This document shows, in pieces, positions 1-53,353 of a stretch of 64,000 bases of DNA. A program made the position numbers and the translations under genes. Source of the DNA: Parasitella parasitica NRRL 2501 (Eukaryota > Fungi > Mucoromycota); the NCBI GenBank assembly GCA_025201805.1, contig MU619258.1, positions 1 through 64,000 of the forward strand, read 5' to 3'. Each line of letters starts with the position of its first letter. The first letter of the stretch is position 1. A model generated the notes under the pieces. The model was given only the letters and a program-made list of their open reading frames with translations, did not search any database and was not told the DNA's origin.

Positions 1-293
1 CTCAAATGTCAAGGTGCAAACAAACTATTTGATATGTTACATCAGCTCATATTCTTGGATCAATCTCAACAATGAAACATATCAAACCAATTGACAATGA
101 TAACACGGTGTATTTTCTATTCGTTCATCAACAGTGACAACATACTATCACATTAATCTTTTGGTTATTACAGCTACCATCTCAGTTGTAGTAAATAATT
201 GAAGATATACTGTAAATACCCTGTATTTATATCATAATAAACGATATACTTCTTTTATTGTTCGGATACAGTTGAAAGCTGTGAATTATTACA
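1..293 (+). mobile_element. Probable 3' part of an LTR abutting the truncated viral RdRP
   Basis: TATA-like (TATTTATA ~224), AATAAA (~236) and terminus ...ATTATTACA at 293, the same layout as the TSD-flanked LTRs nearby. The left end lies outside the window. Confidence 0.35.
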
Positions 294-302
294 AGTCTCT
301 TT

Positions 303-1896
303 TTATTGTATTGAAATATCTGAAATATACATCAGCGATGAATTTTCGAAAGTAGTCGGTGCGACACCAGATTTTTGTTGGAACATGTAAAAGAGTTTGA
401 GACCTGCTTTGCTTGCGCGGACGTTATTTCCAATCTGACCGTTAGCCCAGCGTGTCAACAACCTCTTATCCATGCCGAGTTCTAGGAACCACGACATCAT
501 CAACTTGAAAACCATCATTTGCTGGGATTTATCAAATTTTGAGAAATCGTTCTCCAAAAAGACTCGGCGGGACGTAGCTTTGTCGTATACGTTCAAATGG
601 TCCTGTATGTCAGACATCGTTTTGGACGTGTTGAACATCACGTTTGGTTTGAGGATCTGCTGCATTCGGTCAAACAAGGCGCAATAAACTGGTGAGAAAA
701 CCATATTACTCTCCTTGCTATGGTAGACGACTGTCTGTGAAGCAGTATACTCTTTAGCGGCTGCCAACTCCATCTTCGGTTTCGCTTCAGCTTTAACAAA
801 GGCATCATAGACGTCGAGGACTGTTTCTGCATCAGTAAACTTGGAGTTTTCGATGCGACGAATTTGTGCTTCAGTCAAGCAGTTGATACGTTCTGCGATA
901 TCATCTTCGTTTATAGCGACCGGGTACTTCCGGAATTCAGCCGTCATCTTCTGGGCCTCGGGGATGCAAAAATTTTTGTATGCTCGGCCTAGTGTCTGAC
1001 GCCAGACCACGTTAAATCTTGAGCGGTTTCCAATGGTGGAACATTGCATTGTCGTTTCTGGAATGCTATAAGAGTTTCACGCGTAGTCTGCTGTCTTTTA
1101 AGTCCACAAGCAGTACGCAAGTTTGATTCAAAACCTGTAAAACTCTTCGGGGCATCCAGCTTTGAACGTTGGATCTTCAAGAAAGTAGTCTGCGCGTTCG
1201 TCACCACGTTTGCGTAATGCACGTGTATAGCGTCGAACTCACTGTCCACCAAAGAAACCCCAGCTAAAGTGCGGTCATACGCGGATTGTAAAACCTGCAC
1301 CGGACACTTTTCCTTCGCAACGGGCAAACTGGTAGTAGCATCCATAGCTGTAGACTGTAGCAACGGTTCGTGACCTGGACGCTCGAAGTGTTTAGTGGCC
1401 ACAGATAAAGCCAGAGTGTCGTCGCTGATACGTCTGAGTAGGTTGAATGCAGGGGTCGTAGTTTCTATGTTTAAATCGGGATGAACACGAACACTAGGGG
1501 TAATGTAGGTTTCCGATGGTTCAAGACGGTCTATCGCAACTGTCGTACATCTCGCGGCGACTGAGGTAGTTTGGGAAAGGCGGGACGGGAGAAGGTAGGA
1601 GGGGGAGCGGTAGGAGATGATACTACTTGGCATGGTACACGAGGCACCTCGGACGCTACGGACGGTTTAGTCAAAGTATCATCCATAGCATCTCTCAAAA
1701 GGTGTTCTATCGAAATTGCATCGCAGCCTTCGTTATGGAGTGAGTGATCAATTGAAGAACCAGCACCATTACTGTTGCTGCGAATGACGCAACCGTTACA
1801 ACGGGCTGTTGAGTAACAAGTGTAACCGCGGCGTTTTTCCAGGATAACCGGAGGAGAACTGTAGGTCCGGTTCGTGTTGGTAGGTTGGGCGATCAT
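303..1896 (-). pseudogene. Endogenous viral element, 3' part: linker plus RdRP_2-type (alpha/virga-like) RNA-dependent RNA polymerase, frameshifted twice and truncated after motif B
   Basis: LQSAYD..., SNLRTACGLKRQQTTRETLIAFQKRQCNVP (cf. tobamovirus [28 protein letters not shown]), QTVVYHSKESNMVFSPV, motif A LENDFSKFDKSQ (~522-557) and motif B QQKSGVAPTTFENS (~343-380). No GDD. ORFs 1531-1896, 989-1633 and 303-1049 each require a -1 shift to join. No introns evident. Confidence 0.93.
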
Positions 1897-1898
1897 GG

Positions 1899-2308
1899 TG
1901 ATCTGCCATAATTATAGACAGAAGATCATGACAATGTACTTCAATTGAAGATTGAAGATTGTCCAATGATGTGATGTGATACGCTTGTGTAAATTGGAGA
2001 ATAAAGTCTCTGTTTCAAATCAAGAAGGTTATTCCTGTAAGTAACACAGATCTGAGCACCAGGATAAAGGTTAAGGCTCTGTCAGATCAAAGACGTGTAG
2101 CCCTTGCTATATAACCTCATATCGTACCCTGTCAAGTAGATTGTCACTGTGAATTAGTCTTGTCAATTAGTAATCTAAATAAGTCACCATAAATTTATGT
2201 AGTTGTAAAAAGTATAAATAGCAGATGCAATTTCGATCTTAAATAAAGTATCTTTAGTTTTCGTATCTCGTTAACCTTTGGTTTTTTTATTATCTTTTTG
2301 ATCCAACA
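1899..2308 (+). mobile_element. Solo LTR (410 bp) inserted in the viral replicase
   Basis: TG...CA ends, perfect 5-bp TSD CATGG (1894-1898 and 2309-2313), TATAAATA at ~2213 followed by AATAAA at ~2242. Near-identical inverted copy at 8775-9402. Confidence 0.92.
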
Positions 2309-4762
2309 CATGGGACGTTTCGAATCCTTCTGAACTGGGCGGAACACGATCCCAACTGGGCGTGGATTCGGGACGACGGTCGCTGAGTTCACCGGTAAGT
2401 TCTGCGGAGGCGCGCCGTCTGGGGTGGTCGGATTCGCGGTTAGAACGTCCACTGTCTGTGCAACGGAAGGTTCCTGCCGTGTTTGCACGGGCAACGCAGT
2501 TTGGGTCGATACGAGTGTGTTAGTTGGCATAGTTTCCTGAGAAGAGTCTGATCGTTCGGAATCAGACGAAACGGACCCTTCACGTGAATGGTAGGAAGGT
2601 GGTGGTGGGTTGCAATCAGAGCAAGTGGTCCTGGCGTAGTCAGTGTGTAAGACGGGTTGCATACACGACTTGCAGGCTCTGTGTGCTGCAGAAGCGGATA
2701 GGATGTTTGTGGTGAATATTACCAAACGTTGAGCGGCTGGCAAGGTAGACGGATTTGTGACTACAGTGGGCGTTGATTCTTTGTACCGACGGAGCATTCC
2801 TTTGAGTATGAAATCTGGGTTGGACCGGAACTCATTGTCGACTTCTTCTTGGAAGAAATCAAGAGCGTCCATACGGAGTACGGTCTCAGCGTGGTCACGC
2901 TTAAGGACTAGCGGATCCATAGCCGTCGGAGTAATACCCGGAGGTTTGGATAAGGCGTTCCTGGACTTGTAATCAGACACTATAGTCGAGTTGTTAGCGA
3001 CGCGACGCATACCAGACAACATGTCGTTGAAGAAATCACGTACGGACGTAAATCCTGAAGTAAGACATGAAGAGGTCGTCGGTTCATCGCCAATGATAAG
3101 GTAACTAGGTGCAACTGTGATTTCCACGTTGAAGTCTAGGTCTGGCGTCTTGTGTAGGAACTTGACGAAAGCATCGTAGATCAGATTGATCGGTCCGTTG
3201 CGAGCGACGTACAAGACTTTAAGTCCGTGGTGAAGGACGAAGCGCAGGAAAGCGGAAGGTAAGAACCTTTTGGAAGCAGCAAGGCGATCTTTGAATTGAC
3301 TAGACATTATCGCTGCGGTAATTCCTTGTTCGTACACAGTGTAATAGTGATTGTAATAAAGGGCGGTGGCCAGTGCCATCTGATCTTGAGTCGTCATCAT
3401 CTGTTTAGCTTGACGGGAAACACCATCTACGATAAATTGCGAGTCTCGATTGTAGATGTGGCGGAAAACGTCTTTGAGGGCGAGACGTTCCTGGCGACCG
3501 GAAGGACCGACCTTGCGCGAAAAAGAGGAACAGAATTTGCGGGTTTGTCTGACTAATTCCGAGTCGACGACCAAGACGCGGCGGTTGTAAGAGGAGAGGT
3601 CGGCCTGGTTATGGTCGATAGATTTCAGCTCAAGAACATTCACGAGCGTCTTTCCCTTATACATGTTCAACCATAAGGGAAACTGAATAGTTTCGGAAGC
3701 GTCGAAATCTCTCTCGGGTCCAAGATCGACTATTTTAATCAGGTAAGTGTCAGGATACTGTGAATCGACTATCTCTTTGAGGTAGGTATTACCGACCTTA
3801 TCAAGAATGTGTCCCCTGAAATAAGTCTTGGTAATATACTCCGAATAAGCGCGATAATCGTACACCTGATTCCGGTTCACATCGTTCTTGAACACGATTC
3901 GGAGCGTGTTGGCGCTACGATCGATGAAGTACCTGGCATCGTAGGAGTCGATGTAACCCTCATCATTGTAGAGCATCTGAGGCGTGTATATGATCGATAC
4001 ATACGCAATTTTTGCCTCTTTGGTGCGCATGAACTTGGCCATATTCTGAAGACTGAGAAAATTGCCGGCACCGAAGACGGCTACAACAGCTGGGGCCTTC
4101 ACTTGGCAACTGAGGACATTTCCTGTACAGAAATGCAGATCCTTATTCTGCAGGAACGAGACGGCTGCAGGAAATAAGGGTTTTCCTGGGTTACCATCGG
4201 TACCCTTCCGTTTCAAAGAGGCGAGGCGGAAAGCTTCTGAGGCAATACGACGTACGACAGCAATGTCATGAGCAGAGCGTGAAGCCATGCAACAGTGAAC
4301 ATTATGCCGATAGTCCAGGATGTGCACTAGTGGGTTACCGCCGAATTCGACGAAACTGGTAGAGATCGAGCCTGCGAGTTGAAACAATAAATTTTGTGTA
4401 ACACGCAAATCGGCGTCGACGAGGGGAGTATCGGATACCTTTCGGGCGTGCAATTCGAAAGGGACCCCGGGGAACATGCGAATCAATCGACTCTCGTCAT
4501 CGGGAGAAAGACAGGTCTCGATGACAATGTTACGAGCGGATTTAGACATAGATTCACGACATACTACTTCTAGTCTGTCTGTAACACCTTGCCTTACTAC
4601 GTTGTAGATGTGGGACTTAGTGTCTGTAGAGTACCTTGTGACTCGACGGTTGTAACTTTCAGCACTCAGACCGAGGTGAGCAAAAACGCTCTGAACACTG
4701 GGTGGAACCTCTCTGCTATTGTTGCGGGGAGCTTCCGTTGGTTGTTGTTCTGGCCCGTTCAT
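2309..4762 (-). pseudogene. Endogenous viral element, 5' part: alphavirus-like methyltransferase/guanylyltransferase, CxxC-CxxC motif and low-complexity linker (818 codons without a stop)
   Basis: LSPDDESRLIRMFPG...FVEFGGNPLVHILDYRHNVHCCMASRSAHD aligns by eye with tobamovirus VSEEQTLIATRAYPE...[29 protein letters not shown]. Likely viral ATG at 4762, intronless. Confidence 0.88.
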
Positions 4763-4915
4763 TTGAATAGGTGAGATAAGATTGGTTGTTGGTTGTTGTG
4801 AGATGGGATAGTTTGATTTAAGTGGAGTTCTGTGTAGTGGAGTTTTCTGTGGCGTTATTTTATGTAGTTCTATCTGGCGTTGGCTTAGGCTATGGAAACC
4901 TAAGCAGTGTAGTAG
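4763..4915 (-). other. Putative captured viral 5' UTR
   Basis: About 150 nt A/C-rich, G-poor leader (CAA/CAAC repeats) with a 7-bp hairpin GCTTAGG/CCTAAGC (4883-4905), lying between the protease and the viral ATG. Confidence 0.6.
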
Positions 4916-5030
4916 ATTATAAGCTCTTGCAAAATCAATGTCGCAGAAATTGTCCATAGAACCAGAATCAATCAACGCAAATGATTTGATAGTAGATCCA
5001 TTAATGTTGAGAGTAACATCAACAATAATA
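4916..5030 (-). mobile_element. Ty3/gypsy retropepsin (aspartic protease) N-terminal fragment
   Basis: IIVDVTLNINGSTIKSFALIDSGSMDNFCDIDFARAYNL with the catalytic DSG at 4961-4969. It runs into the gap upstream. Confidence 0.88.
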
Positions 5031-5630
5031 NNNNNNNNNNNNNNNNNNNNNNNNNNNNNNNNNNNNNNNNNNNNNNNNNNNNNNNNNNNNNNNNNNNNNN
5101 NNNNNNNNNNNNNNNNNNNNNNNNNNNNNNNNNNNNNNNNNNNNNNNNNNNNNNNNNNNNNNNNNNNNNNNNNNNNNNNNNNNNNNNNNNNNNNNNNNNN
5201 NNNNNNNNNNNNNNNNNNNNNNNNNNNNNNNNNNNNNNNNNNNNNNNNNNNNNNNNNNNNNNNNNNNNNNNNNNNNNNNNNNNNNNNNNNNNNNNNNNNN
5301 NNNNNNNNNNNNNNNNNNNNNNNNNNNNNNNNNNNNNNNNNNNNNNNNNNNNNNNNNNNNNNNNNNNNNNNNNNNNNNNNNNNNNNNNNNNNNNNNNNNN
5401 NNNNNNNNNNNNNNNNNNNNNNNNNNNNNNNNNNNNNNNNNNNNNNNNNNNNNNNNNNNNNNNNNNNNNNNNNNNNNNNNNNNNNNNNNNNNNNNNNNNN
5501 NNNNNNNNNNNNNNNNNNNNNNNNNNNNNNNNNNNNNNNNNNNNNNNNNNNNNNNNNNNNNNNNNNNNNNNNNNNNNNNNNNNNNNNNNNNNNNNNNNNN
5601 NNNNNNNNNNNNNNNNNNNNNNNNNNNNNN
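5031..5630. other. Assembly gap (600 N)
   Basis: Run of N. Confidence 1.
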
Positions 5631-5958
5631 ATAAACAACTCAATAATATTCACACTCACGTAAGATTAGAATAGCTACGATAGAATTATCCTATTGACCT
5701 GATGAATGACCATCTCTAATCAACCCAACAAGTAGTATGATAGTTTACTACTAAGCCAGAACGGCTGATTAGAATTCATAACACAACATATAAAGAATAA
5801 TGGAACGGTTAAGAAATAACGAAACAATTGTCTGCTAGTAAGACGACACTCAAATAATATAAATAGAGATATAAAATAACAGCTTATTGCACATTCAATC
5901 TACTTTCAAAATAAAGAAGGATTTTAATCGTATCTTGCTTTTTTACACTTTTTTTACT
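5631..5958 (+). mobile_element. LTR fragment interrupting the gag C-terminus
   Basis: 5856-5957 is homologous to 8401-8504 (AATATAAATAGAG...AAAATAAAGAAGGA...TTTTACACTTTTT). Gag breaks off where a CCHC knuckle would be expected. Confidence 0.65.
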
Positions 5959-6857
5959 GCGTTTCGCTGCAGCTGCTTTTCAGTTTTAGATAACGGCTTT
6001 CTTCTGTTTGTCTTGTCAAAAGCATCAATTTCCATTGGCCGTACGTCGTCTTTCTCGTCTTCACGGATTGGAGGATTAACATGATGAGGCAAAGGTGCTG
6101 AACGATATGGTACATTAGTTTTAACATAAACGAATCCTTTATGCTGGTCCTTTTTGCTTCTTTTTCCATTCCTCTCTCTGAACAACATATCAAGATGAAC
6201 TACGAGATCTTGATACCCGACTAAAGATGTTGGTACATCAGGGCGGATCATCAATTCATCATGAATTTGGGAATTGATGTTGTTCTTGTATGCCCAAAGC
6301 AGAGCTTGTTCATTAAAATCGGTTAAGCTAGCATATCTTTTGAATTCAGTAGTAAATTCAGCAGCCGTCTTGTTGCCTTGTTTCATTTTCATGACCTTGT
6401 TCTCAGCTTCAGATACCAACGTAACATCGCCAAACATTTTTCTGATGGCAATAGTAAACTGTTGATAATTGGTTGCTATAGGGTCTTGATCAGGGGTTCC
6501 AATTGAATTAATGTAAGGTTAAATCCATTCGAATGCTATTGCGTCCATGAAAGAAGCTGCATAAATTATCTTGGTTTCATCATCATGGAAACGGGATGGG
6601 TTTAACTTGAAAACAATGTTGAGTTGAGTCAAAAATTTTTCCAAACGATTGTATCCGTCCCCATTGTAATTGATGCCGGTAAATGTACGTGGGTCATTTA
6701 CTTTGGGTTCGCGAATAACATTATCGTCTTTGAGCGAGACATTTGACAAAATTTGAGTCAACTGAGTAACCTCATCCTCGGTGAGATTCTTTGCTCCAGT
6801 TTTTCCAAGTTTCGTTTGTAATGCAAGAATATTAAGTTGATTGGTTGCCTTGTTCAA
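5959..6857 (-). pseudogene. Ty3/gypsy Gag (Retrotrans_gag, PEG10/RTL1-like)
   Basis: EPKVNDPRTFTG, FLTQLNIVFKLNPSRFHDDETKIIYAASFMDAIAFEW, MKQGNKTAAEFTTEF and VRPMEID. ORFs 6519-6857 and 5943-6437 are in the same frame, separated by one TAA at 6519-6521. Confidence 0.9.
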
Positions 6858-6970
6858 AAAGGTTGATTTATTGATTTGGATTTTGTTGCAGGGTTTCTGA
6901 TTTTATATATGCAAATCAAGTTTCAGATCAAGTTTTTGAAACAATTAGAACACAGTGAGTGAAAATATAC

Positions 6971-7273
6971 TGTGATGGAGTACAATTATCTAGTAGTAAG
7001 GGTAGAATGATGTACTATGTTAATGGACTATTGGTGTATCTAATTGTCGACATTGCTATCAGGGTTATTACTTACTATATAATATATGTAGATATTATTG
7101 GACAAGAAGTAATTGACAGCAATGCGGCGATGTTTATATGAACTATAAACTTATATGTAAACAACGATCGGTAGTGACAGATCAGGTTTGCAGTGATAAG
7201 GATGATTTATAGATAAGAGATTTTGCTAGTATATGAGAAATGTTTATGGTAATAAACTATAAAAGCTATTACA
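6971..7273. mobile_element. Possible LTR(s) upstream of gag
   Basis: TG...CA bounded AT-rich segment of 303 bp just 5' of gag, with AATAAA near its right end. No TSD, and orientation is ambiguous. Confidence 0.4.
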
Positions 7274-7379
7274 GATATTTTCACTAGCGTTTCAATATCT
7301 GGTAAAGGTTGAACCTATTTATAATAATTGAATGTTTCATGTAAAATGAGACATCATGTAATAATGTGAATCATTACAC

Positions 7380-8774
7380 TTGGGTAGACTGGTTTCACTT
7401 GTATACATAAGCAAGATTACCACTCATTCGGCCTACTATCTTCAAGTCATTCATACGGAGTACTCACGCCTCAGAAATTGTGTTTTACAACATGACATAT
7501 ACATCAAGAGCAAAGATCCTGCAAGCCAAAAGCATGGTGTATACAACTCAAGTAAAATGCATATTTTATATCATTTGACAGAAGACATTACGCGGTTTGG
7601 TTCGGCAATCTTCTACGAAGTAGAGAAAGGGGAACAGTTCAATAAGTTCATCCGTGAAACTCTTTTCCGAACTGTGCTGAAGTGATAGAACTTCCCACAA
7701 AAAGTAATTGAATGTCATCTCTTACGGAACTACCTTAGAGATTCCAAATCAAGCTAATAAACAGATTACCTAAATATCTAACCATGAAACCGCGAAGCAT
7801 TTATAAAAAAGAAATCGAACTACAAACCACATTTGGAACGCATAGACCAATGTAAGTGTTATAGATCAGTATAAACTGATCATCACATAAAAAGAATCTC
7901 CGTAAATAGTACCAATATGAACTTCAAATTACCCAGGATATTCCACAAAGATTACAATCGTCAAGACCAGGCTAGCATGGATTTAAGAAGACGTAATCCA
8001 ATATCAAGAACAAATAGAAACAACTCCAACACTCGTCAAATCTGCCATTGGTTATCTCTTTATCAATCCTTGCTGCCAAAACGTCCTGGATGAATAATCC
8101 AATATAATTTAGCTTCAAATCCATAATCATTTACCCTTGGAAAACTAGTATAAAAAGATAGTTTTTAATTGAGATTTGATGAGCTTAATCTAAAAAAAAT
8201 AAAGAACAGTTTTAAAAAGTATTTTTTTTTACATATTTTTTACTAGTAATTTCACAGTAAGGACTGGTCCATGCATGTCATTTACAAATGTGTCAGAAAC
8301 ATCGATATTACAATACCGTACTTGATTATGTAAAATCAAATACCGAAAAACCTGACTGACAGTTACGGCATAACTGACAGACAGACCGTTTACAACAACG
8401 AATATAAATAGAGTAGAAATGTCTAACCTTTGCACGTTATCTTATTCCAAAAAATAAAGAAGGAATTAAATTGTATCTATTGTTGTTTTACACTTTTTAT
8501 TACACGAACCAACAGACATAACCCGTCTAGAGATACTGCATTCGCTTTTGGCAAGCGGTTTATGTCCAAGCATGTGTTGACCGGTGGATGTTGGTTGGAT
8601 GATGCTGGTAATTGGAAGAAGGCAACTGACGCAGTTCTAGAAAGCCGTTCAACATTTTTCGTGCATAGTGGAAGAGATTTCGCTGATAACGATGATGGGG
8701 ATGACGAACATGATCTCAAACGTGGCGCTACTGGGTTATTCAGAGACGCTAATGGGGATCTATTTGTTGGTAAA
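7380..8774 (+). pseudogene. Fragment of a fungal CACTA/Plavaka-like transposase, split by an LTR insertion
   Basis: KMHILYHLTEDITRFGSAIFYEVEKGEQFNKFIRETLFRT|NRHNPSRDTAFAF reads continuously once 7673-8504 and one TSD are removed. This matches the KxHxLxHL...RFG...E.FN...R...NR..PSRD signature. Confidence 0.7.
7673..8504 (+). mobile_element. LTR-type insertion (832 bp; solo LTR or deleted element)
   Basis: TG...CA ends, perfect TSD CGAAC (7668-7672 and 8505-8509), TATAAATA at ~8403 and AATAAA at ~8453. Confidence 0.85.
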
Positions 8775-9402
8775 TGTTGGATCAAAAAGATAATAAAAAA
8801 ACCAAATGTTAACGAGATACGAAAACTAAAGATACTTTATTTAAGATCGAAATTGCATCTGCTATTTATACTTTTTACAGCTACATAAATTTATGGTGAC
8901 TTATTTAGATTACTAATTGACAAGACTAATTCACAGTGACAGTCTATACTTGACAGGGTACGTTATGAGGTTATACAACAAGGGCTACACGTCTTTGATC
9001 TGACAGAGCCTTAACCTTTATCCTGGTGCTCAGATCTGTGTGTTATATTAATAACATGGCAAGGTCTCACATCAGGATCTCAGATCAGTCCCAGGGTCTT
9101 ACAGTAAATCATGGGTAGTCATGATTTACATTATGCAGCTAGACAGTAGAACCCTAGTGTAATGAATGTGTATATAATACATCGAGAGATGTATTATGAA
9201 TAAAGGTGTAATTCTTTGGCAGATTTATTTTATCAGACTTTTGACATAACACTGCGTTACTTACAGGAATAACCTTCTTGATTTGAAACAGAGACTTTAT
9301 TCTCCAATTTACACAAGCGTATCACATCACATCATTGGACAATCTTCAATCTTCAATTGAAGTACATTGCCATGATCTCCTGTCTATAATTATGGCAGAT
9401 CA
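8775..9402 (-). mobile_element. Second copy of the 1899-2308 solo LTR (inverted), carrying a nested LTR
   Basis: Reverse complement of 1899-2308 with few substitutions. Flanks GTAAA/ATAAA give a 4/5 TSD match. Confidence 0.9.
9041..9251 (+). mobile_element. Nested solo LTR (211 bp)
   Basis: TGTTAT...ATAACA termini and TSD CTGTG/CTGCG. It is absent from the 1899-2308 copy, which shows the empty site. TATA-like and AATAAA motifs are on +. Confidence 0.88.
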
Positions 9403-9734
9403 ATAAAGTCTTTGTTTCAAATCAGGAAGGTTATCTGTAACACAGATCTGTATGATTGACAAACAATAAGGTACTGTCAGATCAAAGATCAATAACCTTG
9501 TAGTCTAATAATATATCGTACCCTGTTAAGGATATGATGTTGCTTGCAAATTATTCTTATCGATTAGTATCGACTAGTATTTTAAATAAGTCACCAAAAA
9601 TTTATGTGACTGCAAAAAGTATAAATAGCAGATGCAAAGTTGAATCTTTAATAAAGTAATCTCAAGTTTTCGCATCTCGTTAATTCAACGTTTCATATTA
9701 TACTTTTCTTATTTCGATCTTGCAGATCTCAACA
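9403..9734 (+). mobile_element. Older diverged, 5'-truncated member of the 1899-2308 LTR family
   Basis: Colinear with ~2000-2308 (AATAAAGTCT.TGTTTCAAATCA.GAAGGTTAT; AAAAAGTATAAATAGCAGATGCAA) and ends CTCAACA. Confidence 0.8.
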
Positions 9735-10070
9735 GTAGGATGTCTTCCCGACATCCCGCGATCTGATCTAGATGTATTCTTTGAATAAGCCTGGAACCTG
9801 GCAAGAGGTCCAATTACAACTTGTAGCTTATTCCTTATTTGCAAAAGAATTACCAACAATTAATATCATGATCCGTGCATTATGACTAAGTTAGATATGA
9901 CATATGTAGCCTTTATATGGATACAACAATCCAGTTTTAATTATATATCTATTTCGTATATTAAAACAAGATCGTCTCGTATTATAAGAATTGTTTTTTG
10001 TTAATTACTTGGGTAGATACTAATTTTTATTTCCTTAAACTAATTATACTTTTGTGCGTAAACATGGGGC

Positions 10071-10556
10071 ATGATTTATCAGAAAAAAAAGCTATTCAAA
10101 TAAAGCGGTTGTGAATTAATAGGGGAACAATCTCGTTTATTACATGAAAAACATGATGGTTTATATACAACTCCAGTGAATCCAAGTGGAATTGTAGGGC
10201 ATAAGATGTAAATGTGAGCTATAGTTTGATTGAGAATTGGACGTTAGATTGTACTTATTGTTCATGAACATGTCATATTGAACATGATCTATTGAGTTAT
10301 ATTCCTAGTGATTTATCAGAATGAGAAATTATTCAAATAAAACGGCTGTGAATTAATCAGGTAAAGATCTCGTTTATTACATGGAGAAAATGATGTTTTA
10401 TATACTAGTGAATCTAAGTGGGCTGATGGGAGGATAAAATACAAGTGTGAGACATGGTGTGATTTAGAGAATGGAACGATAGATTGCATCTGTTGTCCAT
10501 GAACATGTCATGTTCAGTTATAAATAAGGAACATGATCCATTGGGATATGTTCCTG
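10071..10556 (+). repeat. Two diverged tandem copies of a ~240-bp repeat
   Basis: TGATTTATCAGAA...TATTCAAATAAA.CGG.TGTGAATTAAT...TCTCGTTTATTACATG...CATGAACATGTCAT recurs at ~10072 and ~10309. A third copy is at ~53132. Confidence 0.85.
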
Positions 10557-11436
10557 AATTGTGTTCGGTTGGAAAATTGATACATCAGGGCAAAATGCGA
10601 TTGATTATTTATTTTCAATACATCAAATAGCGAGACGTAATTCCAATCGGCAACTTGGACATTTCTAAGCATGGATCAATATTTAAGAGGTTGGTTTCTT
10701 CTGTGGGTCAATTATATACTACGCAGGAAACCCTACTTTCCCCTCGCTGAAAGGCCATAATCTGTAATATTAATATGATTTCTAATACTGCTGAAGTCCA
10801 AGTCTGTTATCACCGAACAATATTGATATACTTTTAATTGTTGTTTCTTTGGCAACAAACACTTGCCTTTGCTTTCTGTTGTGTTTCGGGAATATGACTG
10901 TGGTTGTTTCTAATCGTTATCTCGTACAAGGAAGTCAACTCATTCGTGCAGCAGATGTTTCAGCACAACACCGATGGAGTTAAAAGTCAACAGTACGCAT
11001 AACAATCCATATTCCAATAACATCAATTTATTCACTGTGTCCGGATAAAAACCCACATGATCTCAACTGGGTTGAACCCCTTTCATCTTGGGCTGAATGA
11101 AGTTGCACTTTGTACCGCATCTCTCATGCCATGCCTTGGTTAATAAATAAAGCTTATAATGCTATCAGGATCTCTTTATTGAAAGAAAATTTGGGCCAGC
11201 GTATGTACTATTTATTTCGTTTTTCAAATAGAATTTGTCTACCGGTTCTATTTTTCGTCAAGCAAATAGGGCATTAATACCCATGTTGCTCTGCTGAATG
11301 ATTAGACTTTCAAGCTGCTTTGCGAACGTGATATTAAATAGAACGAGTATAGTCAAGTATATGATGATAATAGCAACTAATTCAATAAATGCTAATACTC
11401 AATATGGAGTTATATTCTATTGGAAAGAAAAAAAAA

Positions 11437-14400
11437 TTATCTTGTACTCATTCTTCTTGCTCGCGATCTTAATGTATGATCAAAAATGGGCCGTTTGCTT
11501 GTCTTTCTTACTCGCACTGGCTTTGTAGCCGCAAGAGATACAGCGGCTGTAGAGTTTGTAGATTGCATTGCGACCTGTACTTGTGATGATAAACTAGCTT
11601 CAGGCACTATAACGGCAGACAAGTGTCGAGCATGACGTCGATGATTGATCGCAGTAGACTTGGTCTCTTCTGGAATCACGCTATAAGGCGTATGAGCTGT
11701 CAGTGGGCTTTCAACTGCCTCCTTGTCAAAAAATAGAGGCTTAAATGAAGACACAACGGCAACGGAAGCACTCATACGCCGTCTAACTCCATGGCGACTA
11801 TCATAGGAACTAGGAATAGAATGTGGTCCATGACTAAAATCAAAAATGGTAGGACTGGTGCTGCTGCCATCTAGTAAAAGACTGGAGCTATTGTCTCCTT
11901 GAATATTTCGAAGCATCTTGTTTGCCTTCAGATAGATTGAGTCGGCATTGTGGGGTTGCGTTGAAAATGACTGCTGTAATGTAGTACTGACACTAGTTGA
12001 GCGCTGTCTACTCCTCTGCCGATCACTTCTTCGTCTGACTTTGACATCCAATGTATCCTTCTTTAATTTGTCCAAAAGACTATGCAAAATAGCTTTATCG
12101 TCCTCTGCCTCACCAGCTTTTCCTTTTAATGAACCAGCATTACTATTGGCACGCTTTCTCCTCTCTTGTTCTCTTTTCTTTAGCTTTTCAATGCGATCTT
12201 GTTTGAGGCGAACTTCTTTGGAATCTGCAGAGCACTTTTCCCAAGAGTCTGTGAATTCTTTAAATATGCCGAAAAATTCATTGGGTTGCATTTTTTTAGG
12301 ATCTTCGCCATAAAACGCAACAGCTTGATCATAACATTCATTCATTTTTTTCGAGAGCATGCAAACTCGTTTGAATTCAGTTGAGGCTTCTTTAAAGAAT
12401 GCGTGCATGGTTGTAGAGAATTTATCCAACTCAATGCCTTCATCGTGATCTTCTTCCAGCGGATAATGCTCTTGAAGTTCATTTTCCAACTTTTTCATCT
12501 CTGATTCTATTGCTTGATATTCCATGGCCATCTCAGATCGAGACACTTTAGATGCTAAACCACATTCGTCCAGTTCTTCCAAAAATGCCAATACATTGGG
12601 AAAGTTTTTTTCAACAGCATCGACGAGAAAATGGAGTAATGTAGTCGTTTTTGATGTTCCTTTGGTATCGATTAGCTATTTGTGGAAATAAGAATGACTT
12701 GAAAATTGACATGCACATATGGTATGGACATACCTTGTTGATACTAGCTATCTTTATTCCAAATGCTCCACCCCGGTATGTATTGCCATTTAGAAAGTTT
12801 CCGAGCAATAACACCAGCTGTGCAACGTATATTAGTGTGTTGTTCATCTGAAATGGAGATGGACTTACATGTAATAATTCCTTAAAGTTTTTTGCATCCT
12901 TCAATGCCACTGATGCATTATAAACAGAAGTCATTTGCTATGGAAACAAACGCCAATTAGCTGAAAGAAACTGCAGATCATGATAAATAAATACCTTGTG
13001 GAGCACAGTGTACCTTTCCCAAAATGTCGACTTGAAAAGCATGCATTCTAGTCTCTCTTTCAACCATTTTACTTTCAACATCTATCAGCAGTTGTTGAGT
13101 GGCTGTCTAGTATAAAATACAAAGTGTATACAAGTATACCTGAAGGCAGAATTTTTCTGGGATACCCAGCTTTTCAACATCTTCTAATGGTGCATCATTG
13201 TACATTTCAATCTTTTTGGTTTCTTCTTCAGATGGTAAATATTTGAGCAAGTTTAAGATAATCTGCTCGTCCAAAAAATAAGAGTCTAATCGCAAAAAAT
13301 AATATCTTATTTCATCAAAGGGGATATTTTTGGTAATGCTCTTGATGAATATATCTATGGTAAATTTGTCAATAAGAAAACGCTACACAAAAAAAAAGGT
13401 CATCTTACTCATGTTGTATGCTTTTTTAGTGTCCAACAAACGAGTTTCTTGCTTTGGTTGCTTGGCCTTATTCTCGACAGCTGGTTTTTGAGCAAATGTC
13501 AATTCCACATCATCAAAAACACCTGCTTTAGCAAGCTGATATTCCATAATTGAGTCGCTTGATTCCAGCTGTTTATGCAACGATAATTCAATATCCCTTT
13601 CAAACTCATTCCAAATGGTTTGCTGAATGTTTGCAAAATTCATCTTTTCCCATTCCACAAATTTCAACTTTTGTTTGGCTTGAAACGCACTTGGTTTTCT
13701 CCCAGTAACGCCAAGAAATAAAGGCGGAAGAGGTGGTGAAGATGCCGGTGTATTAGTGGTGTTACTATTTGGTGGTGCAAGTGGTGACTGAAGGTCTTTG
13801 GCCAATGGATCAAGTGGATGTGATGTAGACGGTATGCTTGTCAAAGACGAAAATGCAGGAGGTGGTGGTGGAGGTGGAGGAGGTGGTGGTGGAGGTGGTG
13901 GAGGTGGAGGAAGTGGTGGTGGAGGAGGAGGTAGTGAAGATAAAAGTGGTGCTACTGATGGTGATGGGGGCGACGGTGATATTGATGGCGATATTGATGG
14001 TGATAGTGATGGTGATAGTGATTGCGATGGAGGATGTGCCGCTAACGTGCTTTCTGAATAAGGAGTTGGCGCTAATGGAAATACAAATTCTTCAAAAGAA
14101 GCATAGCTTGGAGATGCCGCTAGCTCACCGTCAACCAGTACAGTGAAGGCAGGAGAAGATAATTGTTTTAATTTTTCGTCTCCTGATGGTGCAACTTCAG
14201 CCATAGACATTTTTGATTTTTGGCTCCCCAAAGTACTAGATGTCAAAGACTTTACAATTTCCCCGTCAGATGGTGTTTTGGCTGAGCCAGCAGTACTACA
14301 CTGAGATCTGTTTGTAGCTGTGGAGCTTTTCCGACTAGTACTTGTCAAACTAGGCGATTTTGTCATTGATTTTTTACTAGTAGAGTTATTTGAACCGACA

Positions 14401-36340: not shown

Positions 36341-38355
36341 CAGTCTTTTTATGGTTTCTGAAAGAAAAAGGTCAAGTAAATGATAAAGATCATGGTGATT
36401 GTAATAGTAAATATTAGGGTTTCTGGTAACAAACCTTTTCTTTCCGATAAAAGCTAAGAATTTTTTGAAAGAAGAGAAAAGTCAACTTAAAAAGATTTAA
36501 AGTGGGGATTTCCATATGATTTAAGGAAAATTAGTGGTTGCTTTGTTTTGTCCGAAGCGAAAGTAAAAAAAGAGAATGTATTGTAAAATAAGCTATCTTT
36601 AATTTGAAGGTAGTCTTTAAAAGAAGTTACGGTTGTCTATTGACAAACATCTGTGATTCTGGGTGTGAGTGTGTCTGTTGACTTTGGATCAAAAACCTTT
36701 AATTGATCTGGCGTCTTCTAGTGTAGAAAGCCTTGTCAGACAAGTACTAAGCTGGGTTCTCTATATCAAGTTGCACAGTACAACAGCTAGTCAAATCTGT
36801 GCCATCTCTTCCATAGTATTGCATTGGAATAGTTCCAAAGTGTGTGTCTTTGTATAGCCAGTGTAGATTTTAGGCGCCTACACGAACTTCAGTGTGTTAT
36901 TGTCAGAAAAAAAGACAAAAACAAGTAATTCAAAGTAATGCATTATACTACAAGGCATCTTTTGATTGCATATTTGCATAGATTAGAGCAAATTTTTGTA
37001 CTTTTAAAGTTGATATCAAATGAAGGTAGCGACTTTTCTGACTTTTTTCGGAAAAGTATTTTTCAAAATCGGAGCGTGAGGTCGTCAGGCCAGGTGCAGA
37101 CATGCAAGTACTACCATTAAAAAGCCAAGAAGCGCAGAATTTGAATAAATTAAATTTCAATTGTTTTTCTCTTAAATTGGGTCAGCCATAACTTCTCAAA
37201 AGCTAATACTTTCTTGAAAAAGACACCATTTTTCTTTGATAGCGGAGATTAAACGCGTCCAAAATCAGGAAGTAAACATTCTTTCAGAAACTCCATTTGG
37301 ACATTAAGAAATCGAAACTACTATTTTAAGGCAAGATATCATCTTCTGGCACTATGCATACCACCACTGTCAGTCTATGATAATAGCTGTATTTTTGGAC
37401 GCTCTACACGCTGGTATCATTTCATGATTCCCGTATGCTTATTGAAGGAATTCTGTCGAGAAAACCTCAAAAACACATCAAGAGGGATAAGTCAATATTT
37501 TGCTTAATCAGAGCGCATTTTCAGCCTTTCAGATCAAGGAATGACCTTTTACGATCATTTTCCTCCAATATATTCTTTAGTAAAAAGTTGCATTTTTTAG
37601 GTCAAAATCGAGAATAATGCATGATCAATGGTTTTGGATGGGTAGATACAAGGAAAAAACCGAAAAAATCCGTCATTTTGCATCGAAAAAAAAATCATGC
37701 TCAAATTGCACCAAAATCATATATTACATAGTTTTTTCCCTATGGATACTATTTCTGGTACTTTCAGGGCACTTTTGATTATGAAAATCAGTCAAAAAAT
37801 GGCACACAAAGCTAAATTTCTTGCTTTTTAGCTGTAAAAACTATCTATCTGAAGATAATACCACGTCAAATATCAATGCTAGTACATGACAAAGCTTTAT
37901 AAATGAAGTGTTTTTCATGCCACAAGTATACCTATCTTCATGGTAATATGGCAGCCTATCGAGTTGGAAGCCGAAGAGAATAATTAATGAAGACAATGTT
38001 TTTGCCGTAATGACCCCTTGTTATTTGTGAATAATTCGCAAGTTGCTAATTTGCTAGTGACAGAGAAGCCCTATTTCCGTTGTTCCTTATAATAACGCTA
38101 AACGTGTAAAATAAAAAGTAGGATAGAGGTGAGGATTGAGGTTTAGGGTAATATTACTAACAAAAGTTAAGCTTCGTAATAAGCTTCTAGTAGATGCCAG
38201 GTTATTTAAAAAATGTCGTTGTATTTATATGCTTCTTCTTCCTACTTGAAATCTTCCTAGGGAGACATTTCTCTTCTCTCCGAAACTACTCAGCTTTGAT
38301 CAGAAATAAAAGATTTATTGTCAGAAACCCTAATAATATTACCATAAAAAGACTG
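36341..38355. mobile_element. Degenerate Tc1/mariner-like DNA transposon relic (~2.0 kb)
   Basis: Left end TA|CAGTCTTTTTATGGT and right end ACCATAAAAAGACTG form a 15-bp perfect IR. An internal imperfect IR follows (ATTAGGGTTTCTG...AAAGCT vs AGCTTT...CAGAAACCCTAAT). No transposase ORF recognised. Confidence 0.65.
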
Positions 38356-53131: not shown

Positions 53132-53353
53132 TGATTCATTAGAATGAGAAATTATTCAAACAAGACGTTTGTGAATTAATCAGGTGAAATTCTCATTTAT
53201 TACATGGTTTATATACTTGTGAATCTTATGGACTGATGGGGGGGATACGATATATGTGTGAAACATGGTGTGATTTAAAGAGTGCAACGATAGATTGTAT
53301 TCATTGTCCATGGCCATGTCATGAAGTGTTATACACAAGGAGCTTGATCCATT
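53132..53353 (+). repeat. Dispersed copy of the ~240-bp repeat at 10071-10556
   Basis: AGAATGAGAAATTATTCAAA...GTGAATTAATCAGGT...TTTATTACATGG...ACATGGTGTGATTTA...AACGATAGATTG are shared. Confidence 0.85.

Follow-up and report, generated by a model that had tools for sequence, protein, structure and literature searches.

Relics of RNA viruses in fungal genomes raise the question of which enzyme made the DNA, and so far that enzyme has had to be assumed. We examined a locus in which a retroelement is still attached to the virus, in Parasitella parasitica NRRL 2501, a fungus of the Mucoraceae. The window is the whole 64,000-nucleotide (nt) stretch of DNA that was analysed (GenBank assembly GCA_025201805.1, contig MU619258.1, positions 1 to 64,000 of the forward strand); the relatives of its gag gene and a matching protein record identify it as fungal. 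On the minus strand, the locus consists of a cognate 5' long terminal repeat (LTR), a gag gene, a 600-N assembly gap, the start of a protease gene, a viral leader and a viral replicase gene. It is a broken chimera in chromosomal DNA that joins the 5' half of a Ty3/gypsy element to a viral replicase segment in the same sense, with a visible viral part of at least 4,161 nt when an inner LTR is not counted. The observed object is well supported, and the gypsy-virus fusion is confirmed as real.

A sequence-only reading of the window had placed gag, a protease with the motif LIDSGS, a leader and a viral replicase in this order on one strand, and the domain and relative matches bear this out. [quoted passage not shown] The protease was said to pass into the viral open reading frame (ORF) with neither stop nor gap, and frame -1 is indeed open from the 600-N gap to 2197. 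The junction lies in contiguous sequence, as claimed, and is bridged by contigs in all four of the sequencing runs compared. The absence of reverse transcriptase (RT), RNase H and integrase was upheld within the window by a search with the pol of an intact relative, L082. A P. parasitica hypothetical protein (P0019, in a 324-kb record) is identical to the window ORF over all 618 residues queried; its gene model begins in the protease and continues into the viral frame, and the record name makes no mention of a virus.

Because L082 matches at the LTR, gag and the protease, all three appear from sequence comparison to belong to one chromovirus-branch Ty3/gypsy family. L082 (1-4226) is one of the two stretches confirmed out of 136 in a metagenome contig scan with the gag alignment. 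It carries a near-intact chromovirus of the Mucorales type with gag and pol in different frames; the order in pol is protease, RT, RNase H, integrase, SH3 and chromodomain, followed by a polypurine tract and the start of an LTR. It matches the window at the gag end, the protease and the LTR start and nowhere else in pol, so that the chromovirus pol order and the chromodomain are seen in L082 while the window carries the protease start only. Compared with the window at 7378, the L082 LTR start scored 33 (0 of 2000 shuffles), and three other repeats scored 16-26. The common origin of gag and protease, part of the sequence-only reading, is thus upheld by L082, which is also a useful reference for this chromovirus family. 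The span given in that reading, 303-6857, contains the fusion and falls short of the cognate 5' LTR.

The gag gene is 78% identical to P0003 over 6848-5973, has one in-frame stop at 6521 and lacks an ATG at the start position of its relatives, which are labelled Parasitella parasitica (74%), Rhizopus arrhizus (58%) and Mucor plumbeus (50%). The protease piece is 60% identical to L082 over 35 amino acids (5029-4928); Pfam gave no match on this piece and found RVP_2 in L082. The M. plumbeus gag model P0012 runs on into the same protease-start motif, as does its cluster mate (2 of 16 proteins). The assembly gap is predicted to hold the remainder of a nested LTR, the end of gag and the gag-pol frameshift region; the equivalent stretch in L082 measures 272 nt, which would fit 600 N if the nested repeat fills the rest. 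At the 5' end, the predicted layout is that of Tf1-type self-priming. The complement of the putative primer-binding site is 11 nt long, a length equalled in 4 of 2000 shuffles, with only two matches in the 64-kb window, and the site is paired in the predicted fold of the transcript (z -5.19).

On the other side of the junction, the viral sequence likely begins at or within ~20 nt of the predicted viral 5' end, as judged from the features of the leader and the start of the viral ORF. Without gaps, the match to L082 reaches its maximum at 4927, and identities continue to about 4913; a 9-bp hairpin (4905-4883, fold z -3.05) starts ~10 nt or less from where the protease similarity ends. We rejected a continuation of the protease similarity into the leader, which was at chance level (1171 of 5000 shuffles). 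The leader contains 5-7% G, a value below that of all 2303 viral coding windows; among 3581 windows of L082 pol, 8 are as poor in G. For comparison we used 12 leaders from 24 related viral contigs >2300 nt; nine of them have a stem that starts from contig nt 1-13, and the G fraction after nt 35 is 0-0.18. The viral ORF starts in register with that of its closest relative, P0001 (residue 77 to 79). Since the N-terminus is in register and the leader is kept, the break is likely at the viral 5' end; by simple arithmetic, a random break on a 4.6-kb RNA would fall inside the 150-nt leader in ~3% of cases. A break at this place fits an enzyme that ran off the template and switched, and also fits the end-joining of a full-length cDNA. 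Rfam gave no match in 1-11500.

We screened 17 sequencing runs, whose type was guessed as DNA and among which no RNA run with the locus was listed, by shared words. Six runs from five studies contained 0.92-0.95 of the words; the remaining 11 contained 0.00-0.06, which has no bearing on absence, and include runs that share the X5/X6 sample label; the label 'organism B' of X5 was accordingly not taken to mean a second species. Four runs from four studies (X1, X3, X4 and X5, of which X1 is possibly the source) were aligned as contigs, and a site was considered bridged with ≥31 nt on each side. The protease-virus junction was bridged by >100 nt per side in all four: a 611-nt contig spans 4448-5030 with 3 differences in each of X3, X4 and X5, and X1 has a contig over 4802-5030 with none. 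X3 and X5 have the same listed differences across the viral part and may represent a single strain; the junction is carried by at least two haplotypes in addition to the possible source. The bridging contigs, together with the solo LTR that sits with a 5-bp duplication in the viral part, place the locus in chromosomal DNA. The contigs enter this inner solo LTR by only 28-29 nt, and those joints are not formally bridged. Each of the four runs also contains another contig, which differs at five positions in 4386-4447 (four of the differences are non-synonymous), and the contigs over 4448-5030 are somewhat deeper than their neighbours, depth being no copy number. From this, part of the viral 5' region seems to exist in a second genomic copy.

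The sequence-only reading had described the viral half as a virga-like genome running from methyltransferase to RdRP, and this description had to be revised. The RdRP stands on the RdRP_2 matches. For the methyltransferase, Pfam Vmethyltransf gave no match on the window ORF, and the domain was reached through the alignment with P0001 (1391 amino acids, 4336-nt contig), which matches Vmethyltransf and RdRP_2 and lacks a helicase, and through a structural model. The model of the capping domain, built from an eight-sequence alignment (pLDDT 69.9), has chikungunya nsP1 as its best PDB match (E 5e-15, TM ~0.5) and, among viral models, matches martelliviral replicases; the 5' ORF is accordingly modelled as an nsP1-like capping-enzyme fold. 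The term virga-like was dropped: a Walker A motif is absent from all minus frames of the window, and the window ORF is collinear from its N-terminus with the helicase-less P0001 (24% identity over 658 columns, E 2e-47), which also rules out that a helicase was lost by deletion. The RdRP piece is 44% identical to P0001 at 998-333, and the piece with the linker and RdRP N-terminus is 37% identical at 1591-1013. P0001 continues for ~160 residues past the point where the window is cut, and no GDD occurs in any minus frame of the window. The capture of a virus was upheld and the capture of a genome was not: a capping fold and an RdRP with no helicase correspond to RNA1 of segmented vivi/jivi-type viruses, and therefore one segment was likely captured.

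A full HMMER search with the 5' ORF retrieved 62 relatives, and a word-indexed search of longer proteins retrieved none among 4521 candidates. When metagenomes were first scanned with the RdRP, none of 108 stretches was confirmed. Of eight long viral ORFs from IMG/VR matches, seven have an RdRP with no helicase and one is a methyltransferase-helicase. To place the virus we used a quick tree built from 49 RdRP rows, which includes no named vivivirus and from which P0055 and P0078 were left out for want of an RdRP match. The window pairs with P0001 (support 99), and the pair lies outside an 18-row clade of vivivirus-sized contigs (99; 3.5-3.7 kb) and outside a 17-row clade of long, mostly helicase-bearing replicases (98). 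We therefore call the virus vivi-like in build, and neither a vivivirus nor a virgavirid. The 5' (CAAAA)n repeat of viviviruses is not found in the window leader, which is A/C-rich with other short repeats. The viral part has no intron and no host-like composition: its ratio of observed to expected CpG is 1.16-1.21, compared with 0.58-0.87 in gag and three host genes. The locus also documents, in a host of the Mucorales, a so far undescribed lineage of helicase-less viruses.

Candidates of a related kind occur in other records. P0020, in a 2265-nt NCBI record labelled P. parasitica, is a second Mtr-like capping-domain protein (26% identical) that is closest to the window ORF and P0001; it probably represents either a further relic of this group of viruses or a different segment. 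P0036, a Phycomyces nitens hypothetical protein in an 809-kb record, has a related capping-like domain and no Pfam match, and is a candidate RNA-virus relic in another family of the Mucorales. P0034, a Nippostrongylus brasiliensis gene model in a 149-kb record, combines a viral methyltransferase with DUF1759, which we take to be a gag-region domain of Bel/Pao elements, and is a candidate virus-retrotransposon neighbourhood of a nematode.

Table 1. Features of the chimeric locus, listed in the order of the minus strand (window coordinates)
Feature	Position	Strand	Remarks
Cognate 5' LTR, 408 bp, TG...CA	6971-7378	-	Start matches L082 3' LTR start behind polypurine tract
TATAAA in cognate 5' LTR	7323-7318	-	
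Predicted self-primer in cognate 5' LTR	7285-7275	-	~35 nt downstream of TATAAA
Predicted primer-binding site, 2 nt inside the element from the LTR	6958-6968	-	Complementary to 7275-7285
Ty3/gypsy gag	5972-6848	-	Retrotrans_gag, E 7.9e-7
LTR-like repeat ending CA, near gag 3' end	5631-5971	+	Orientation judged from motifs; 76% identical to 8401-8503
Assembly gap, 600 N	5031-5630	.	Bridged by no listed contig
Aspartic protease, N-terminal part with LIDSGS, truncated by virus	4913-5029	-	L082 match
Protease-virus junction interval	4906-4927	-	Best estimate 4913-4906
Predicted viral 5' leader, 150 nt	4763-4912	-	Hairpin, then G-poor A/C-rich repeats
Viral replicase, 5' part: predicted nsP1-like capping fold (Mtr1 type), Cys-rich stretch, low-complexity linker	2309-4762	-	
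Solo LTR, 410 bp, TG...CA, inside viral gene	1899-2308	.	CATGG target-site duplication
Viral linker piece, third frame	1531-1898	-	ORF and stop maps
Viral linker and RdRP N-terminal piece, other frame	989-1666	-	RdRP_2, E 5.7e-7
Viral RdRP piece, motifs A and B, cut before GDD	335-1076	-	RdRP_2, E 3.6e-40 (match 303-1076)
Partial LTR-like repeat ending CA, cuts viral RdRP gene	1-334	+	Orientation judged from TATA-like/AATAAA

Three nested repeats, which the sequence-only reading had passed over along with the missing helicase, the two frameshifts and the cut before GDD, interrupt the chimera. The solo LTR inside the viral gene is flanked by CATGG at 1894-1898 and 2309-2313 and differs from an inverted sibling at 8775-9402 at 8 of 410 bases. 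The other two are marked by piled-up contigs with loose ends at 334 and at 5971. In all three, TATA-like and AATAAA motifs follow each other in the order of the plus strand, antisense to the virus; an agreement of three out of three is not significant. We ruled out that the cognate 3' LTR is the repeat at 1-334, which has no match to 6971-7378 and scores lower against the L082 LTR start than the cognate LTR does. An inversion between 1899-2308 and 8775-9402 was ruled out as well, because each copy retains its own flanks (CATGG/CATGG and GTAAA/ATAAA).

The viral gene has a frameshift near 1013-998, and we place a second between 1666 and 1533; the frameshifts within 335-1898 are common to all four runs, which show no differences over 307-1924. 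Upstream, 818 codons from 4762 to 2309 are free of stops and in frame with the protease. A frame this long would stay open through 1% neutral change in 42% of cases. Five of the six strain differences in this long frame are non-synonymous, compared with 74% expected at random (the numbers are small), and X1 and X4 share a one-base loss at 4241. The insertion looks young, since the strains differ by few bases, and the pattern resembles neutral decay. As a protein gene the locus is now most probably inert; at most it would be a source of virus-like RNA from the putative LTR promoters.

Repeats pile up only within the first 11 kb of the window. The inverted sibling at 8775-9402 carries a 216-bp insert (about 9042-9257), and after it, at 9402-9730, comes a partial copy of the same solo LTR family with 75% identity. 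Two diverged tandem copies of a ~237-249 bp unit lie at 10072-10555, with a third, related copy 43 kb away at 53132-53353. A 95-nt inverted repeat, 78% complementary (36412-36506 and 38241-38335, 1.7 kb apart), may represent the ends of an old DNA transposon. By ORF reading, 11437-63464 holds ordinary fungal genes, presumably for a formin, a subtilisin-like protease, a myosin V, an adenylate cyclase, a STE20-like kinase, an ABC transporter and an amino-acid transporter.

How the two halves were joined can be stated only in terms of probability. We consider it probable that a viral RNA packaged together with the element's RNA was copied by the RT of the element as far as the viral 5' end, where the enzyme switched template to gypsy RNA. 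Within an infected hypha, viral RNA would have been taken into a gypsy particle, and minus-strand DNA, primed by the predicted self-primer, would have moved onto it at a 3' point beyond the window. The enzyme would then have run off the viral 5' end, which forced a switch to gypsy RNA in the protease region; synthesis would have been completed through gag and the primer site, and the particle integrase would have inserted the chimeric cDNA. The virus lies in the sense of the element, as predicted for the copying of plus-strand RNA. In the later history of the locus, LTR-like repeats entered gag once and the viral gene twice, and gag acquired a stop and the viral gene its frameshifts.

Several points weigh against this account. 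The 3' junction, 3' LTR, polypurine tract and target-site duplication of the element lie beyond the window edge; the rest of pol could also lie there, beyond the virus, which leaves unproven that the virus sits in place of pol and that the chimera was inserted as one unit. The tie between gag and protease crosses the unbridged 600-N gap and rests on family likeness. The source virus itself has not been seen, its closest relative being 44% identical in the RdRP. The hairpin is a weak argument, as 3 of the 12 comparison leaders have no stem and a z of -2 was reached by 3 of 10 that were folded, and the starts of related contigs are not mapped RNA ends. Finally, the breakpoint was set by a relative only 60% identical in the protease.

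The unseen viral 3' end is what separates the template switch from the end-joining of cDNA. A viral cDNA made separately by any RT could have been patched into a double-strand break in a resident gypsy element, with the rest of pol now beyond the virus. We regard this as unlikely, while noting that a full-length cDNA would likewise end at the viral 5' end, that the far end of the virus is unseen, and that insertions gather in the first 10 kb, a pile of nested LTR-like repeats. However, the three nested repeats belong to other families and are later than or independent of the fusion, and the shared sense and the flush junction with no visible filler fit copy choice; patching gives no orientation preference, which is a one-in-two argument only. 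The 5' junction would look the same if the viral RdRP had switched between viral and gypsy RNA and the chimera had then been retrotransposed in trans. Template switching by RdRPs at RNA ends belongs to general virology, but this path needs a second event for the gypsy 3' end, whereas RT copy choice needs one round and has direct precedent, and we judge the RNA-level fusion very improbable.

Two further explanations concern the nature of the locus. The frame from protease through leader to capping domain could have been kept as a domesticated fusion gene with a host function, as the 818-codon stop-free frame joined to the protease and the existence of the NCBI gene model P0019 might suggest. 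The share of non-synonymous differences, close to that expected at random, the one-base loss in two of the four runs, the stop and insertion in gag and the neutral survival estimate for the frame all speak against this, and we give it very little credence. An assembly chimera, or contamination by cDNA from an infecting virus, would find some room in the gap, the many repeats, the guessed run type and the short reach of contigs into the nested LTR joints. The long bridging of the junction in each run, with small differences of its own, both frameshifts in all four runs and the target-site duplication around the inner LTR make such an artefact hardly credible.

An extension of the favoured template switch is speculative, and we think it improbable. 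Mucorales chromovirus particles might routinely reverse-transcribe entire mycovirus segments and archive them under an LTR promoter; the locus would then be a full LTR-to-LTR capture from an undescribed segmented virus, recopied once, that through its sense LTR and the three nested LTRs in antisense supplies double-stranded RNA (dsRNA) for inherited protection by RNA interference (RNAi), and P0020 and P0036 would have arisen by the same route. A heritable RNAi memory locus, put forward as possible in the sequence-only reading, found no support, and the ORF drifts as neutral sequence does. If true, this would be a fungal counterpart of the mosquito memory based on endogenous viral elements (EVEs) and PIWI-interacting RNAs (piRNAs). 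To our knowledge, fungi have no piRNA pathway. The RNAi system of the Mucorales is well studied, and the locus offers a defined place to address the question of inherited antiviral small RNAs in fungi.

In mouse, Geuking et al. (2009) reportedly described a recombinant cDNA of lymphocytic choriomeningitis virus and an intracisternal A-particle, mediated by the retrotransposon, somatic and experimental, not inherited. Copy-choice recombination between LTR elements and RNA viruses in animals, a precedent on which the sequence-only reading drew, is described in PMC6797480, for mosquito cells and genome, and in PMC5177903. The latter presents eBxnv-1, in which a nodavirus RdRP lies within a Bel/Pao LTR element of Bursaphelenchus xylophilus, a nematode. 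Here too RNA1 of a positive-strand RNA virus sits in a degenerate LTR element, with low copy number, strain-level distribution and an explanation by RT copy choice. It differs in having an animal host, a Bel/Pao instead of a gypsy element and 1.7 kb of virus compared with at least 4.16 kb here. Both LTRs and expression were shown for eBxnv-1, whereas the window locus is known from its 5' LTR and from sequence; its junction lies within the protease, at the predicted viral 5' end. The virus-LTR hybrids of Aedes aegypti include an EVE of CFAV flanked by a Ty3/gypsy LTR and gag (PMC6797480). These too are Ty3/gypsy-virus hybrids, some of which are joined in the viral 5' untranslated region and not driven by homology, but they belong to an insect piRNA system with demonstrated antiviral small RNAs, whereas the window locus was read from DNA.

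On the fungal side, totivirus-derived non-retroviral integrated RNA virus sequences (NIRVs) of yeasts and other fungi (PMC2805616, PMC13756089) are also inherited RNA mycovirus sequences. They derive from dsRNA viruses, are old and under selection, and, as the authors of PMC2805616 state, have flanks with no obvious retroelement signature, whereas virus and retroelement are joined here. Segment 1 of viviviruses, vipoviruses, jiviviruses and pucciniviruses carries Mtr1 and RdRP on one ORF with no helicase (PMC12282112); viviviruses also have other segments, for an Mtr2-helicase, a protease and a capsid, and a poly(A) tail. The window shares this build and an A/C-rich leader, but differs from FaVvV1 S1 in size (>4.16 kb versus 3.65 kb), in having no (CAAAA)7-8 repeat and in an RdRP that groups only with P0001. 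In the self-priming retrotransposons Tf1 and Tj1, the primer site beside the 5' LTR complements a stretch of the LTR (PMC4600332). The window resembles them in that the complement of its putative primer site lies inside the LTR just downstream of the TATA box, and differs in being a broken element of a Mucoraceae family with predicted self-priming.

The literature searched, which was mostly open-access, contained no fungal retrotransposon-RNA virus junction and no Parasitella virus relic; supplementary EVE tables were outside its scope and may list the locus. The available parts of PMC11371549, PMC12027680 and PMC2864245 likewise contain no fungal retrotransposon-RNA virus case. Virus-LTR chimeras are thus known in animals and RNA-virus relics are known in fungi, and within the literature searched the direct join of a retroelement to an RNA virus in a fungus is new here. 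The element family, its predicted priming mode and the junction can all be named at this locus, and if the template switch is true, it shows one route for RNA viruses into fungal chromosomes.

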